From: an uncultured Chloroflexia bacterium
GTDB taxonomy: Bacteria > Chloroflexota > Limnocylindria > Limnocylindrales > CSP1-4
Direction of reading: 5' to 3'
Length of the DNA: 64,000 nucleotides
Assembly (NCBI GenBank): GCA_963712745.1
Contig: CAVQJC010000004.1
Span: 1-64,000 of the forward strand
Both the position numbers and the translations under genes were made by a program. The notes beneath the pieces were generated by a model that was not told the origin of the DNA, searched no databases, and worked only from the letters and a program-made list of their open reading frames with translations. Positions 4,041 through 54,554 of this stretch are shown here, piece after piece (positions within the stretch are counted from its first letter, which is position 1; each line of letters begins with the position of its first letter).

Positions 4041-4670
4041 TCAGATTCGGGATGCCCTGATGAGCCGCTCCGGGTCGGCGAGCACCTTGGTGATGCCCTC
4101 CACGTCGCCAGCCACGACCTCACGAGGCTGCACGAACAGTGGATGGCTTGCGTCGCTCACGCAGAGAGACGTGTCCAGCATCCGGAGGGCATCGGGGTAG
4201 TCGTCTGGCTCGTAGTCCACGGCCCGACTCGCTGGCGGCTGGGTCCAGGGGAAGCCGTTGCCGAGGCCTTCACGAGTCCGGAACAGGGGATCGGAGGTCA
4301 CCGGCGCGACGTGCCAGAGCATCGCATCGAGACCTTCGGCCAGCAGCGCCCGACCGAGGATGTCGCGGAAGGTCTGCGCTGGGACACTGAACCCCAGCAC
4401 CTCCGGATCGAACCTCAGGCGGTACAGGTAATAGACGGAGGTCCGATCATCGGGCACGCTCGGCGGGATGAGCCCCGGAATCTTCCCGAGGTGCTCGTTG
4501 AGGAACGCGGCGTTCGCCTGTGCGGTCTCGATGTAGCCCGGCAGGCGCTTCAACAGTGACCGTGCCAGGGCTGCGGGCATCTCCTGGTGGCGGTAGTCCC
4601 AGCCGATGCTGTGGGTCGTGTAGGGCCGGAACTCCCACCCGGACAGCTCCCGCAGCTCTTTGTCGTGATG
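4041..4670 (-). pseudogene. C-terminal fragment of a DegT/DnrJ/EryC1/StrS aminotransferase
   Basis: GWDYRHQEMPAALARSLLKRL...NAAFL...L.KIPGL..P......SVYYLY; the N-terminal PLP-binding half is not evident upstream. Confidence 0.7.
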
Positions 4671-4920
4671 GGACGATGGCACGCCAGGCCGAGGTTGGCC
4701 GACACCCCGACGGTCTGCCCCGGCCCGACGCACGAGGACGAGAGAGGACGTTCGTGCATTTCCGCTGGTCTACGGGCCGATTCGGTCGATGTCGAGCGAT
4801 GGGTCGGACGGGTGTTAGGGAAGTCGAACAGAAAGGGGATGCCACCGCGCATCTCGTCTAGACGTCTGCCCCCTCGCGGGACGGGACGAACTCGAATGCA
4901 TCCGAGACGGCGCGATGGTG

Positions 4921-5846
4921 CTAGTCGAGGAGCGCCATCACGGTCTCGGTTAGCAGCTCGGTCGGCACGGTGTGGCCACCCTCGAACGCGGTCAGCTCCA
5001 CGTCGTAGCCAGCCTCGACGAGCAGGGCCTCGAACAGGGCCGACTGCTCGAACGGGACGGTGTAGTCGGGGTCCGAGTGCAGGAGCCGCACCCGCAGCTC
5101 GGGATGCAGCCCCACCGTGGCCCAGAGCGTCTGCCAGAGGTCGGGCTGATCGTGCTCCAGCTAGGAAGTCCCGGCCGTACAGGCCCTCGATGCCCACGAA
5201 GGTGTCATAGGGGCCGCCGATGCCGACGAAGTCATCGACGCGGGTCGAGGCCTCACTGACCGTGCAGTCGTACTGCGCTGGTGGACCGTCCTCGGACGCC
5301 TCGTGCTCGTCCCACACTCGGTCGAAGTCCGTCCCGGCGAGCGCCACATGGGAGGCCACGCCGGCACCGAACGAGAAGCCGACCAGCACGAGCGGTGCCG
5401 TCTCGCTCCCGTACGCCGACCCACGGGCGAAACGGACGGCGCAGGCCACGGCCTCCGCCAAGGCCCGGTAGCCCTGGGCGTTCTCGCCGATCGCCGTCTC
5501 TGGACGCAGGTTCGGGCCGTCCACCACCAGCACCGTCGTTCCCTGCTCGGCCAGGGTCTGCGCCAGGGGCCCCCCGTCACGAGCTCCCATGAGGTATCCG
5601 GGCACGTAGACGACGAGTGGCGCGTCGTCACCCTCGCCACCCACGTAGGCATCGAGCCTCAGCTCCGTCGGCGCATCCGGCCCGCCGCCGGTCGCGTAGA
5701 CGAAGATCTTTGATGACCATCACCTCGCCGGGTGGGTCCGATGTCGTGTCGGCCGGATCGTCGCCCTGGGCGACCACCGACGCTGGCAGGACCGCCGCGA
5801 CCACGAGGCACAGCGGTCCTGCGAGCGAAAGCCTCATCGTTCGCAT
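4921..5846 (-). pseudogene. Secreted alpha/beta hydrolase interrupted by two frameshifts (~5700, ~5160), possibly assembly errors
   Basis: Signal peptide MRTMRLSLAGPLCLVVAA after RBS GGAAGGAG; GFSFG nucleophile, HSDPDYTVP (Asp) and EGGH (His) lie in different frames. Confidence 0.75.
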
Positions 5847-50712: not shown

Positions 50713-50991
50713 TCAGCCCTGGCTCGGGAGCTCCATGATCAGGCTGCGCGTGTGACTGAAGGCCGTGAGTCGGCCGACCAGCCCGGAGAGCCCGGTCTTG
50801 TCCTCGCCGCGGCTGGAGCACTCGAGCCAGACCGACCCGCTGTCGGCGACGGCGAGCATGTGCCGGCCGCAGTTGCAGTAGGGCGCGGAGCGTTCCGCCC
50901 TCTCGATGAGGTCGACCGCGCGCTGGTTCTCGCGCTCGGTCAGGAAGGGTCCCGGACGGGCGGCGAGCCCGGGGACCTGCGTGTGGGTCAT
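50713..50991 (-). CDS. Small Cys/His-containing hypothetical protein
   Basis: RBS AGGAGG; YCNCGRHM...WLEC...H. Confidence 0.75.
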   Translation of the reverse strand: MTHTQVPGLAARPGPFLTERENQRAVDLIERAERSAPYCNCGRHMLAVADSGSVWLECSSRGEDKTGLSGLVGRLTAFSHTRSLIMELPSQG

Positions 50992-51180: not shown

Positions 51181-51876
51181 ATGACAGTCGAGGCAAAGGA
51201 CGCCGCGGCCGCGGGCGACCCGCTGGACGAGCTCATCGCGCAGGAAGCACCGTCCGATGCCGTGAGGCGCACCGCCAAGCTCGGACGGCCACGCAGCGAC
51301 CGGGCCCACCGGGACATCACGCAGGCCTTCCGGGAACTCCTCATCGAAGAGGGTTTCGGCAAGGTACGCATGGAGCACGTGGCTGCGCGGGCCAACGTGG
51401 GCAAGGCCACCATCTACCGCCACTGGCCCACCAAGGAGGCCCTGGCGCTGGAGGTGTTGCTGCAACTGGCGACGCCTCACCTCGCTGTCCCGGACGTGGG
51501 CGACACCAGGATCGAGCTGCTGGCGACCGTGCTGGCCCCGATGCGGGCCCTGACCGAAACGGACTTCGGGCCGGTCATCCGCGCGCTGCTCTCGGAGATC
51601 GCGCGAAACCCCGAGCTGGGCGATCCCTTCAGGGCCACGGTCGTACAGGCCCGGCGCGATGAGGTTGCCCGGGTCATCGCCCGAGGCGTCAGGCGTGGCG
51701 ATCTGCGGCCAGACGTGCACCCGGAGGTGGCCACGGAGATGCTCGTCGGCCCGGTGTACTGGCGGCTGATGTTCGGTGGCGCCCTCGACGCCGAGTTCGC
51801 CGAGCGCATCGTCGACGACGTCCTGCAGGGCTGGTCGATGCGCGGCTGGGGTGAGGTCGCCACCAACTGGCTGTAG
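51181..51876 (+). CDS. TetR/AcrR family regulator
   Basis: GRPRS...VAARANVGKATIYRHWPTKEAL. Confidence 0.93.
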   Translation: MTVEAKDAAAAGDPLDELIAQEAPSDAVRRTAKLGRPRSDRAHRDITQAFRELLIEEGFGKVRMEHVAARANVGKATIYRHWPTKEALALEVLLQLATPHLAVPDVGDTRIELLATVLAPMRALTETDFGPVIRALLSEIARNPELGDPFRATVVQARRDEVARVIARGVRRGDLRPDVHPEVATEMLVGPVYWRLMFGGALDAEFAERIVDDVLQGWSMRGWGEVATNWL

Positions 51877-51946
51877 CGGGCGCCCGCGGCGCTTCAGCTG
51901 GCGCCCCGGCACCGGGTCGGGTGCCGACAGCGGAGCCTGGGACGCC

Positions 51947-52669
51947 CTAGTCGCCGAGAGGCAAGCGCTCCATGAGCACGAGGAACGGTGTCGTCTGCGC
52001 CGACGGCGACTCGATCACGGGCAGGCGCAACCAGGTCTCGCCCGCGGGTCCGCTCTTCCAGCGGGCGTCCAGCCTGCGAGCGGAGATGGCCGGCAGGCCG
52101 AGCGAGGCCACCGCTCGTCCGAGCATCCGTCCCTCGCCCACGATGCCGCGGTTCAGGACGCAGTGATCGGAGTCCTCGAGGGCAGCGGCCAGGCGTCGTC
52201 GTCGTTCCACGAACGGCATCCGCGCTAGCGACTCGCCTTCGAGATAGGGCAGGTCGGTCGCCACGAAGGCGCCTTCGGCAGGCTCGTCGGTGACGGCGCC
52301 GGCTCGCAGGCGCCGTCGCAACAGCCCTTCATCGGGCCGTCCTTCGTGGTCGAGGGCAAGGATCACCCCTTCCACGATCAGGCCGTCCGCCGACAGATGA
52401 GCGCGGAGGGCGGACAGCTCGGGAAAGGCCGAGAGCGGGTCGGCCAGGTGTTCGGTGGCGAGGACCAGGCTGTTTCCTTCACGCCGGATGGAAGCATGGG
52501 CGCCGGGCCACCAGGGCTCGAAGAAGTAGCCCTCATCGTCGAAGGGTCCGTGTCCATCGCTCGGCTCCGGCAGTGCGATGCGCGCGGGCAAGGCCCCATC
52601 CCGGGGGCCTGCCTCGGCCGCGAACGACAGCGGCAGCTGTCCCTCGGCCGCACGGTCCTTGGCCGTCAT
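51947..52669 (-). CDS. ATP-dependent DNA ligase adenylation-domain homolog with degenerate catalytic motifs
   Basis: FFEPWWPG, FPEL, IVEGVI, ATDLPYLEGESL..MPFVERRRRL, ISARRLD..W..G.....WL. Confidence 0.8.
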   Translation of the reverse strand: MTAKDRAAEGQLPLSFAAEAGPRDGALPARIALPEPSDGHGPFDDEGYFFEPWWPGAHASIRREGNSLVLATEHLADPLSAFPELSALRAHLSADGLIVEGVILALDHEGRPDEGLLRRRLRAGAVTDEPAEGAFVATDLPYLEGESLARMPFVERRRRLAAALEDSDHCVLNRGIVGEGRMLGRAVASLGLPAISARRLDARWKSGPAGETWLRLPVIESPSAQTTPFLVLMERLPLGD

Positions 52670-52700
52670 CGTGGCCGGCTCCCCCTCGGCTGGCTGCGGG

Positions 52701-53651
52701 TCAGGCGGTCTTGCGGCGCGCTGCCGGGGCGGCCGTCTTGGACTTCGAGCGGGACTTGGACCCGCTGGTGGCCTTGGCCTTGGTGGCCCTGGGCTGGCGC
52801 GCACGGGCCTTGCGCGCCTTCTCCACCGACACCGGCTCCCCGGCCTTCGTCGCGGGAGCGCCGACCCCTTCCGCCCGGGCGGCGGCCACGCTGGCTTCGA
52901 GCACGGCCATGAGGTCCGTGAGCCTGCTGGTCTCGGGTTCCGGTGCCGGCGCCTCCACTGGCTGGCCGGCGACCTTGCTGTCGATGACCTTGAGCAGCGC
53001 CTCGCGGTACTCGTCCTTGTAGCGCCCGGCGTCGAACTCGCCGGTAAGCGCGTCTACCAGTTGGCGGGCCATCTCGAGCTCGGCCGGCTTGAAGTCGGCT
53101 TCCCCTTGGGGGATGTCCAGGTCGGCAGTGTCCCGCACCTCGTCAGGCCAATAGAGCGTCGACAGCAGCATGGTGGGGCCGAACGGGTCGAGGGCCGCCA
53201 GCTGCTCCCTGTCCTTGAGCACGATCTTGCATACCGCCTGCAGCTGGCTGTCAGCCAGCACGCTCTTGAGCAGGGCGAAGGCCTTGCGTCCGACCGGTTC
53301 AGGCTCGAGGTAGTAGGACTGCTTGACGAAGCGCCCCCCGGCGTCCTCGCGGCGCGCCGGCACGAACTGCTCGATCTCGATGGAGCGGACGGTCTTGAGT
53401 GGCACGGCTTCGAAGTCGCTCTCCTCGAGGACGACGTACTGGCCCTTGGACCACTCGTAGCCGCGCACCGTGTCGGAGCGCTTGATCTCGCCGTGGTCGG
53501 GACAATGCACCTTCATCCCGATGCGCTTGAGGTCCTCGGCGTGAAGCATGTTGAAGGAGAGGCCCCCACGCGACTCGGTCGCGAGGTAGAGCCGGACGGG
53601 GATGGTGACGAGGCCGAACTGGATGGCGCCGCGCCACATCGCGCGTGGCAT
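52701..53651 (-). CDS. ku: NHEJ Ku protein
   Basis: MPRAMWRGAIQFGLVTIPV, GYEW.KG.YV, LYWPDEVR, YKDEYRE, DLM.VLEAS, basic tail. Confidence 0.96.
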   Translation of the reverse strand: MPRAMWRGAIQFGLVTIPVRLYLATESRGGLSFNMLHAEDLKRIGMKVHCPDHGEIKRSDTVRGYEWSKGQYVVLEESDFEAVPLKTVRSIEIEQFVPARREDAGGRFVKQSYYLEPEPVGRKAFALLKSVLADSQLQAVCKIVLKDREQLAALDPFGPTMLLSTLYWPDEVRDTADLDIPQGEADFKPAELEMARQLVDALTGEFDAGRYKDEYREALLKVIDSKVAGQPVEAPAPEPETSRLTDLMAVLEASVAAARAEGVGAPATKAGEPVSVEKARKARARQPRATKAKATSGSKSRSKSKTAAPAARRKTA

Positions 53652-53780
53652 GTGCGTACTCCTTGCGGTGCGGACGAGCGGCGTCCGCCAGGGGCGAAAG
53701 CATAGCGCCGCGCTCGGGGTATGCCTAGCCGCCCCCCCACAGCGGGGTCGAGCGCCGAGGAACGGTATCCTCGCTCGACG

Positions 53781-54554
53781 ATGAGAAGGTTCGCCGTTTG
53801 GCCGCTGGTCGCCGCCCTGGCCGCGGGTGCGTGCGCCGCGGACGGTCCTGCCGCGCCCTCCCCGGATGCCTCGGCCAGGTCTGCGACCACTGCCGTGGAG
53901 GAGCCGGTCGACGGGACCAGTGCCAGTTACGAGGAGCGAGGCGAACCGCTGCGGATAGTGACCCTCGGAGACGCCTACACCCGAGGCACCGACACCGCCG
54001 CCCCGCGTCGCGACAGCTGGCCATCGCAGCTGGTCGAGTCGCTCGAGCGCAGCGGTCTGTCACTGTGGCTGTGGAACCTCGCGGAGCCCAGCCACACGAG
54101 CAGTCAGCTCATCGAGGAGCAACTGGGCCAGGTCGCCTCGCTCGAGCCGGACGTGGTCACGCTGCAGGTCGGCGTCAACGACATCATCGCGCACGAGACC
54201 GACTGGTACCACGACAACGTCGAGATCATCCTCGATGAGTTGCTGGCGATCCTGGGGCCCGACCGGATCTTCGCGGTCACCACGCCTGACCACACGTTGA
54301 CCGAGTGGGGCGACGCCTTTGGCCCGCGCGAGGACGGCAGTGTGGCCGTGGCCGAACTGAACGCCACCTTGGCCGAGGTCGCCGCCGCGCGTGATATCGA
54401 GGTCGTCGACATCGGCCAGGTCAACGACCTCGCCCTGGCCGACCGGAGCCTCGTGGTCGGGGATGGGCCGTACCCCACCGCCAAGCAGTACGCGGGCTGG
54501 GTAGAGGTCATCGGCCCCCGCGTCTACCAGGCTCTCGTCGCGATCGGGAGGTAG
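53781..54554 (+). CDS. SGNH/GDSL-fold lipoprotein with catalytic Ser and His replaced
   Basis: Lipobox LAAGAC; GDAYT, GVND, DGPYP. Confidence 0.85.
   Translation: MRRFAVWPLVAALAAGACAADGPAAPSPDASARSATTAVEEPVDGTSASYEERGEPLRIVTLGDAYTRGTDTAAPRRDSWPSQLVESLERSGLSLWLWNLAEPSHTSSQLIEEQLGQVASLEPDVVTLQVGVNDIIAHETDWYHDNVEIILDELLAILGPDRIFAVTTPDHTLTEWGDAFGPREDGSVAVAELNATLAEVAAARDIEVVDIGQVNDLALADRSLVVGDGPYPTAKQYAGWVEVIGPRVYQALVAIGR

Follow-up and report, generated by a model that had tools for sequence, protein, structure and literature searches.

The window examined here, a stretch of 64,000 nucleotides (nt) from an uncultured Chloroflexia bacterium of the class Limnocylindria (assembly GCA_963712745.1, contig CAVQJC010000004.1, positions 1 to 64,000 of the forward strand), contains a gene for a ligase-fold protein of 240 amino acids (aa) that lacks the catalytic lysine. 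This gene, called PL below (51947..52669, minus strand, stop codon included), is defined by its open reading frame (ORF) and translation, homology, fold and conserved family. The ORF runs without interruption from an ATG at 52669 to a stop codon at 51947-51949, as described in a first-pass annotation made from the sequence alone. A longer reading started at a GTG (to 52804) was rejected; it would overlap the neighboring Ku gene, and the starts of homologues give it no support. The Ku gene (52701..53651, minus strand, 316 aa) is the first of the two-gene unit and matches PF02735 (E = 1.2e-37) and TIGR02772 (E = 4.3e-76, 255.8 bits against a cut-off of 150). It lies upstream of PL on the same strand with a spacer of 31 nt, so that the placement with Ku originally described also holds, and by this arrangement the two genes look like an operon. 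A Shine-Dalgarno-like run, GAGGGGGAG (52679..52687, minus strand), can be read in the spacer 9 nt before the PL start codon and presumably functions in ribosome binding. The comparisons below make it very probable that PL is a conserved non-catalytic protein linked to non-homologous end joining (NHEJ).

The homology of PL to ATP-dependent ligases is weak by curated thresholds but clear as read from several kinds of search. The match to Pfam PF01068 (E = 7.2e-5, 23 bits) is under the cut-off of 26.2, and those to the NCBIfam NHEJ-ligase models (E = 1.6e-19 to 3.5e-13) are far under theirs, with 59.7 bits against 227.75 for TIGR02779 and 69.7 bits against 989 for NF007210. With phmmer against the PDB, the Thermococcus ligase 9df9 was found at E = 1.4e-16 (Pyrococcus ligases were also matched) and the ligase domain of Mycobacterium tuberculosis LigD, 1vs0, at E = 4.3e-7. 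The AlphaFold2 (AF2) model had a predicted local distance difference test score (pLDDT) of 68 with 27 homologues, and of 82.6, with a predicted template modelling score (pTM) of 0.76, with 115. Foldseek, for which the query was the first of these models (27 sequences, pLDDT 68), returned 68 hits with E ≤ 0.001. All of its first 50 PDB entries were ATP-dependent DNA ligases, the best being 9df9 (E = 2.9e-11, TM score 0.61 over 181 columns), with 1vs0 at E = 1.3e-7. By model and structure search, PL folds like the nucleotidyltransferase (NTase) domain of an ATP-dependent DNA ligase, and the ligase adenylation-domain scaffold noted at first is borne out by the profile, phmmer, AF2 and Foldseek results together.

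The names and roles of the motifs follow the customary nomenclature. In an HMMER alignment to solved ligases, motif I of PL reads FEPWWPG under FEIKYDG. The degenerate EPWWPG (residues 51-56; 52502..52519, minus strand) has Trp for the adenylated Lys, which in the accessible portion of PMC8656161 is K481 of M. tuberculosis LigD, and Pro for Asp. Motif III is EGVIL under EGELV, with the motif Glu gone, and motif IIIa is TDLPY under FDILY, with the aromatic residue gone. The motif IV equivalent, LPAISARR (residues 192-199; 52073..52096, minus strand; PAISAR aligned under EGLMAK), has lost Glu and Gly and has Arg for Lys; the motif V equivalent, WLRLP (residues 213-217; 52019..52033, minus strand; aligned under WLKIK), has lost both Lys. 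The first-pass annotation had already listed the EPWWPG, LPAISARR and WLRLP replacements, which the residue alignment confirms, and to which the losses in motifs III and IIIa are now added. It had also reported the absence of an OB domain, the part that closes a ligase around DNA; this agrees with the lack of a PF04679 match in Pfam and of any further domain in the AF2 model, and the chain stops 23 residues past motif V. In addition to its low curated scores, PL lacks the KxDG lysine and, in motifs III, IIIa, IV and V, the residues that contact the nucleotide. With neither the nucleophile nor these contacts, PL cannot, to judge from its residues, form lysyl-AMP, and ligase chemistry is not credible for such a protein. 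Functionally it does not belong to the ligase family, since the defining catalytic features tested are absent. As its sequence reads, it is a pseudoenzyme offshoot of a LigD-type ligase domain.

In a word-indexed search with PL, 922 of the 8000 proteins scored reached E ≤ 1e-3. Identity to PL is 57-100% and length 204-297 aa in the best 120, which their sources name “hypothetical protein”, “ATP-dependent DNA ligase” or “LigD”. EPWWPG is invariant in 27/27 aligned homologues; in a larger set of 115, with 41-71% identity to the PL of the window, E51, P52, W53, W54 and G56 are invariant and P55 is conserved in at least 90%, with Trp at the lysine position in all 115. In the motif IV region S196 and R199 are invariant and R198 is conserved in at least 90%, as are W213, L214, R215 and L216 in the motif V region. 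Nei-Gojobori ratios of nonsynonymous to synonymous substitution rates (dN/dS) between PL and its six nearest relatives were 0.18-0.33, compared to 0.18-0.24 for the adjacent Ku, with medians over all usable pairs of 0.43 and 0.41 respectively; dS is near saturation (median ~1.05), and these ratios are hence rough. PL combines the loss of catalytic residues with purifying selection and wide conservation, as expected of a pseudoenzyme. The earlier suggestion of a conserved pseudo-ligase, as opposed to strain-specific decay or a dN/dS near 1, is upheld by the homologue alignment (EPWWPG and the five invariant residues) and by the ratios to the nearest relatives.

Related stretches were found 134 times in species-representative genomes, and 80 loci were kept for synteny counts, almost all from metagenome-assembled genomes (MAGs) of Limnocylindria or other Chloroflexota. 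Ku is directly upstream and on the same strand in 74 of the 80, a conserved adjacency that extends the proposed Ku linkage across the homologues, and at many loci the stop of Ku adjoins or overlaps the start of PL. The six loci without Ku are L008, L022, L032, L051 and L058, which lie 11-679 nt from a contig end, and L012, considered below. Several gene orders occur: Ku-PL with LigD elsewhere, as in the window; Ku-PL-LigD, in two genomes of one genus (G194 and G125); and Ku-LigD without PL (G170). The genome of the window is 84.6% complete, with one Ku match in the whole assembly. An apparent Ku-PL fusion in L056 (4053-6011), where the frame of Ku continues into that of PL and PL overruns its usual stop, was put down to assembly indels. 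Similar anomalies of the Ku or PL frame in L010, L055 and L063, on long-read MAG contigs, are most likely assembly indels too.

The distribution within the class was examined in a sample of 301 genomes, which includes 11-12 flagged as unpublished; the picture is unchanged without them. In family f4, 99 of 103 genomes have a PL profile match at E ≤ 1e-25 (98 at E ≤ 1e-40) and 101 have Ku. In the window's own family, f1, PL is present at E ≤ 1e-40 in 18 of 91, plus two split copies, and Ku in 85. Family f3 has Ku in 86 of 92 genomes and PL profile matches in 65, all weaker than 1e-33 and, where rows are listed, located in 810-850-aa LigD-type frames. Neither was found in the 12 genomes of f2, and the two of f5 have Ku (2/2) and no PL (0/2). 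Read against each other, the two class tables show Ku in all genomes that have a strong PL match, but not a strong PL match in all genomes that have Ku.

PL belongs to a wider group of lysine-less proteins. When 1.84 billion representatives were searched exhaustively with a profile, 8411 matched at E ≤ 1e-3 and only 23 at E ≤ 1e-30. Every top match that covers motif I has EPWWPG, and the next layer consists of real ligases with E[PVI]KWDG. The nearest of these read EPKWDG, from which motif I of PL differs at two positions, with W for K and P for D. A list of 149 proteins includes many other lysine-less ligase-like sequences (FEIRWDG, FEPSWDG, FEIDWDG, FSVDWDG, FEVLWGG, EPWWGG), and sister groups have Arg, Ser, Asp, Asn, Glu or Leu at the lysine position. 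In a maximum likelihood tree of 130 NTase domains, rooted at midpoint only and made after 7 of 137 rows with fewer than 150 matched profile positions were dropped (among them the own genome's other two ligases), one branch of 35 rows contains no lysine in any of them (Shimodaira-Hasegawa-like approximate likelihood ratio test, SH-aLRT, 96). The EPWWPG family is a 21-row subclade within it (SH-aLRT 99), and a few further lysine losses are scattered among the 81 lysine-bearing rows. Named members come from MAGs of Chloroflexota, Dehalococcoidia and Dormibacteraeota.

A second subfamily (F[SG][VI][DE]W[DE]G at motif I) has Asp, Asn or Glu for the lysine. Its members are 333-369 aa long and have an OB-sized C-terminal half. 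Of 76 loci in metagenome contigs, 58 have at least 1100 nt of sequence before the gene, and in 57 of these the gene immediately before it is Ku; LigD is upstream of Ku in all 31 with enough sequence, giving the order LigD-Ku-dead ligase. In family f3, the gene right after Ku encodes a ligase with intact motifs (FELKWDG, EG[IV]VAK, WLK) in 4/4 genomes examined. Since all three kinds follow Ku, the slot can hold a live ligase, a dead ligase with an OB-sized half or a dead one without. In the f3 loci (L185:2727-4736, L188:3586-5530, L186 and L187), LigD is divergently transcribed upstream of Ku. OB-less paralogues not linked to Ku are found at L106:4028-4885 (genome G170) and L105:4021-4791 (G086); they have EPWWGG or EPSWGG at motif I, keep DGE in motif III, start with QLSLPL or QLNLSL and end with RLPLDD or RLPFDD.

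The extreme C-terminus of Ku (52704-52721 in the window; Ku genes of L001-L184) is a nearly fixed RRRK[TSA][AS], following a variable basic/acidic linker, and is alike in Ku linked to PL, to the second subfamily and to LigD (RRRKTA in 24/73, RRRKAS in 27/65). It was considered as a partner site specific to PL and rejected, being found as well in the Ku of L107, which has LigD next to it and no PL, and in that of f3.

PL has a conserved peptide at each end. The N-terminal hexapeptide, QLPLSF (residues 11-16; 52622..52639, minus strand), stands out by its conservation, with a family consensus of QLxLx[L/I], and fits the hexameric motif for binding to the beta clamp. Q11 is found in 111/113 homologues, L12 in 113/115 and L14 in 107/115, position 16 is Leu in 79, Ile in 31 and Phe in 2, and the flanking columns are variable (entropies 2.2-3.4 bits). 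The pattern Q[LIVM]x[LFIVM]x[LFIVM] occurs in 110 of 114 complete N-termini, as against ~1% expected from composition, and elsewhere in 1/115. It is present in 67 of the 80 genomic loci, and the 13 that lack it are mostly cases of a contig end, a frame break or a near-miss (QLPLPA, for instance). This region has a pLDDT of ~62 and no secondary structure in the AF2 model, so that by sequence and model PL has a clamp-binding-type peptide in an exposed flexible region. In the accessible parts of two papers, the hexameric beta-clamp-binding consensus is given as QLxLxL (PMC4564189) and QLSLPL as the tight-binding clamp motif of Hda (PMC12309361); exactly QLSLPL is found in five members of the PL family. 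Two lysine-bearing ligases from the representative library (P0189 and P0191, with FEVKWDG) start with DQLQIEL or DQLSIEL. An N-terminal QLxhxL-type peptide is therefore not confined to dead forms, and may be older than the loss of the lysine.

The C-terminal tail, PFLVLMERLPLGD (residues 228-240; 51950..51988, minus strand), is likewise marked out by conservation, with a family consensus of RPFLVLLE[RK]LPLGD. P228 and L236 are invariant, and F229-L233, P237 and L238 are conserved in at least 90%, equal to the conservation of the core; in the AF2 model the tail has a pLDDT of ~49 and no secondary structure. The live ligases of f3 end in a homologous RPRL[VI][VL][LM]xSLPF, and the second subfamily in PTVLxxLP[LIF] or [MVL]PLPLGD. 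In the representative list, an LP[LFI] tail is found in 15/29 lysine-less proteins, some of which are fragments, versus 2/83 lysine-bearing ones. Because it outlasted the deletion of the OB domain, the tail is probably a functional anchor of this lineage. The most divergent tail (VPLRDLLARLPVRE) is that of the PL at L012, a copy that also differs from the rest of the family at several positions elsewhere nearly invariant; it may have begun to decay once Ku was lost, in this single example (n = 1).

An intact LigD of 867 aa, with PE, ligase, OB and Prim-Pol domains, is encoded on another contig of the window's genome (C14), unlinked to Ku and PL. Its ligase domain is the best paralogue of PL there (35% identity, E = 1.4e-11), and it has neither of the terminal peptides of PL. 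The genome also has two further ATP-dependent ligases, as well as dnaN (C6). Other LigD-type pieces are found at C1:504405-508443 (L100), where a ligase NTase match is split over two frames, and at this position and C2:195644-196235 (L099) Prim-Pol matches are split over two adjacent frames; these pieces may be broken paralogues or assembly frameshifts.

Around the Ku-PL pair, a TetR-family gene (51181..51876, plus strand) converges on it from downstream, and a GDSL-lipase gene (53721..54554, plus strand) is divergent from it upstream of Ku, followed by carA and carB. An ORF of 92 aa at 50713-50991 (minus strand), located between the TetR gene and one with a META domain, contains a CNCG…C pattern; Pfam gave nothing for it at E ≤ 1, and it may not be a real gene. 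A promoter and terminator scan of 51700-53900 found no promoter-like sites and one terminator-like site, inside the gene and at chance rate. A single 214-nt contig from an estuary metatranscriptome run (X20) is identical to the part of Ku at 53259-53470, with the caution that RNA libraries can contain DNA. No contig in the metatranscriptome run falls on the PL gene, and contigs of this kind are no proof of a transcript. Of the words sampled from the Ku-PL stretch, estuary and sediment DNA runs contain at most about half. The host is a soil and sediment bacterium.

On balance, the EPWWPG protein is probably a non-catalytic paralogue of the LigD ligase domain, selected as an accessory subunit of Ku/LigD end joining, and the observations suggest a third, non-enzymatic helper in this kind of bacterial repair. 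The folded NTase core is kept with a remodelled pocket (EPWWPG, SARRLD, WLRL), and PL would act as a tether or scaffold, its dead core and tail docking to Ku and/or LigD at a broken end. The disordered tail, RPxLVLLxxLP[L/F], would have been inherited from an active Ku-adjacent ligase, the disordered N-terminal peptide would probably dock to the sliding clamp, and the unlinked three-domain LigD would perform the chemistry as PL tethers. The parts of this scheme differ in likelihood. The chances that PL contacts Ku or LigD directly appear about even, and those that its N-terminal motif binds the sliding clamp somewhat lower. The Ku adaptor, scaffold or NHEJ inhibitor roles proposed in the first-pass annotation were inferred ones, and so would be every binding partner of PL and the sign of any effect on end joining; promotion and competition are not told apart by sequence. 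The full version, in which the Limnocylindria and related lineages would have three-component end joining, with the dead ligase bridging Ku (and LigD) to the clamp and the RPxLVLLxxLP[L/F] tail as an unrecognised Ku-docking peptide, is a tentative and rather doubtful extension.

Two comparisons bear on the contact with Ku. In the accessible portion of PMC13717202, the C-terminus of M. tuberculosis Ku contacts the LigD ligase domain at D522, K579 and L580. These fall on A94 and R158/R159 of PL, and the K579/L580 position is within a helix, E155-L160, of which R156, R157 and L160 are invariant. As a discriminator this mapping was set aside, since the helix is conserved in ligases generally, leaving weak support. 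A complex prediction of two Ku chains and PL, each with an alignment, gave a median score of 0.19 against a mark of 0.32, in a series without control runs, and weighs neither for nor against binding.

Several observations weigh against an accessory role. Ku-positive genomes without PL are common in the same class (f3, most of f1), and end joining therefore does not generally need PL. At L012 (G301, 4047-5690) the carA-lipase-PL-TetR synteny is kept but the locus has no Ku, and a search of that assembly, which may be incomplete, gave none either; the unlinked paralogues of G170 and G086 adjoin ABC-2 transporter genes. The PL family can therefore exist without an adjacent Ku. On the clamp side, the hexapeptide of the window itself ends in Phe, a residue common to only 2/115 at that position. 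Gln is missing from the N-terminal peptides of the second subfamily (PLPF, PLLF, LPLxLP) and of the f3 ligases, so that the clamp reading is strongest for only part of the clade. To this may be added that the roughness of the dN/dS values applies here too, and that the invariant replaced residues of the pocket could reflect a hidden ligand-binding function instead of pure scaffolding.

The last point leads to the other explanations. The remodelled pocket might bind a 5'-phosphate end, a flipped base or a nucleotide, making PL a sensor or protector. The NTase domain of a ligase binds the 5'-phosphate side of a nick, the replaced residues (Trp-Trp) are invariant and not drifting, and Arg preserves the positive charge in motifs IV and V; against this, DNA binding by isolated NTase domains is weak, PL has no OB or other DNA-binding domain, and no tool result indicates a ligand, so that such a reader of ends is rather unlikely. 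Slightly better placed, and still unlikely, is a decoy, in which the dead domain would fill the site of LigD on Ku or the DNA end and delay or gate ligation; gating while clamps mark replicating DNA, where recombination is preferable, would be one example, put at the same level. PL derives from a LigD ligase domain (its best paralogue at 35% identity), it is positioned for co-transcription with Ku, and the clamp-type motif could couple it to the replication state; in M. tuberculosis, the C-terminus of Ku binds this very domain (PMC13717202, accessible portion). Nothing distinguishes inhibition from activation, however, and the ancestor-like f3 gene in the same slot is an intact ligase, which points to a helper acting in repair.

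An alternative in which Ku would be only co-regulated is a prozyme-type pair, where the dead paralogue would heterodimerise with LigD or its ligase domain and activate or stabilise it. Dead paralogues that activate live counterparts are known (PMC5201418, accessible portion), and the orders LigD-Ku-second-subfamily gene (31/31) and Ku-PL-LigD would suit such a pair; the LigD of the window's genome is nevertheless on another contig, and this predicted interaction is improbable. An active enzyme with another nucleophile or substrate could be imagined from the intact fold and the strict conservation of the pocket. It would have to work with all five NTase motifs devoid of their ATP/AMP-contacting residues and, having no OB domain, with no motif VI, and the assortment of residues at the lysine position of sister groups (Arg, Ser, Asp, Asn, Glu or Leu) suggests no common chemistry; it is very improbable. 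A decaying pseudogene or strain-specific accident would account for the loss of catalytic motifs and nothing more. It is ruled out for practical purposes by the open frame, the conserved length, the 115 homologues and a dN/dS of ~0.2, as well as by the 134 related stretches in species-representative genomes and the presence of PL in 99/103 genomes of f4.

Searches of the main texts of openly accessible papers turned up no account of a Ku-operon ligase paralogue that lacks the lysine, and none of a connection between bacterial NHEJ and the clamp. The accessible parts of a comparative NHEJ survey (PMC7719229), a metagenomic survey of repair enzymes (PMC10140301) and a LigD review (PMC8656161) mention neither, and bacterial NHEJ is described in abstracts as a two-component system, Ku plus LigD. 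PL would be a third gene conserved in an NHEJ operon, a ligase domain stripped of its chemistry with two docking-type peptides retained. If it is an adaptor, it would serve as a natural experiment on what ligases do in end synapsis apart from catalysis. It would also be a candidate for connecting end joining to the replication clamp, and would supply a new peptide motif for Ku. If the three-component reading is true, the lysine losses repeated within this lineage would demonstrate that a ligase has a structural role in end joining that is separable from its chemistry and can outlive it, in parallel to the non-catalytic role of ligase IV in eukaryotes. There is also a consequence for annotation: sources give these proteins names such as “ATP-dependent DNA ligase” or “LigD”, and surveys of genomes by ligase-domain counts will therefore score them as active NHEJ ligases.

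Among known systems, the closest is the ligase domain of M. tuberculosis LigD (1vs0, 6nhx), which shares with PL its fold, sequence homology and a Ku/NHEJ gene neighborhood. Unlike it, PL has no adenylatable lysine (K481), its motifs III, IIIa, IV and V are degenerate, and it has no OB, PE or Pol domain. The stand-alone post-Ku ligases of f3 (G016, G082, G088 and G097) occupy the same slot and have a homologous tail, RPRLVVLxSLPF versus RPFLVLLERLPL in PL; they keep FELKWDG, EG[IV]VAK, WLK and an OB-sized C-terminal half, in frames of 357-445 aa, all of which PL has lost. Hda (QLSLPL) and the polymerases with the clamp-binding motif QLxLxL have the hexapeptide pattern of the PL family, which lies close to the N-terminus where no structure is predicted, but no other similarity to PL, and the window copy is QLPLSF. 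Eukaryotic and archaeal DNA ligase I binds PCNA through an N-terminal PIP box and is like PL in combining a ligase fold with a clamp-binding-type N-terminal peptide, but the motif is of another class, the clamp is a different one, and ligase I is active. In eukaryotic NHEJ, a catalytically dead DNA ligase IV has a structural role, and XRCC4, XLF and PAXX serve as scaffolds. The idea put forward for PL is similar, in that a ligase-shaped or scaffold protein would hold ends and partners without chemistry, centred on Ku by way of short terminal peptides. XRCC4, XLF and PAXX have no homology to PL, however, and here the dead ligase is a separate natural gene beside a live LigD.

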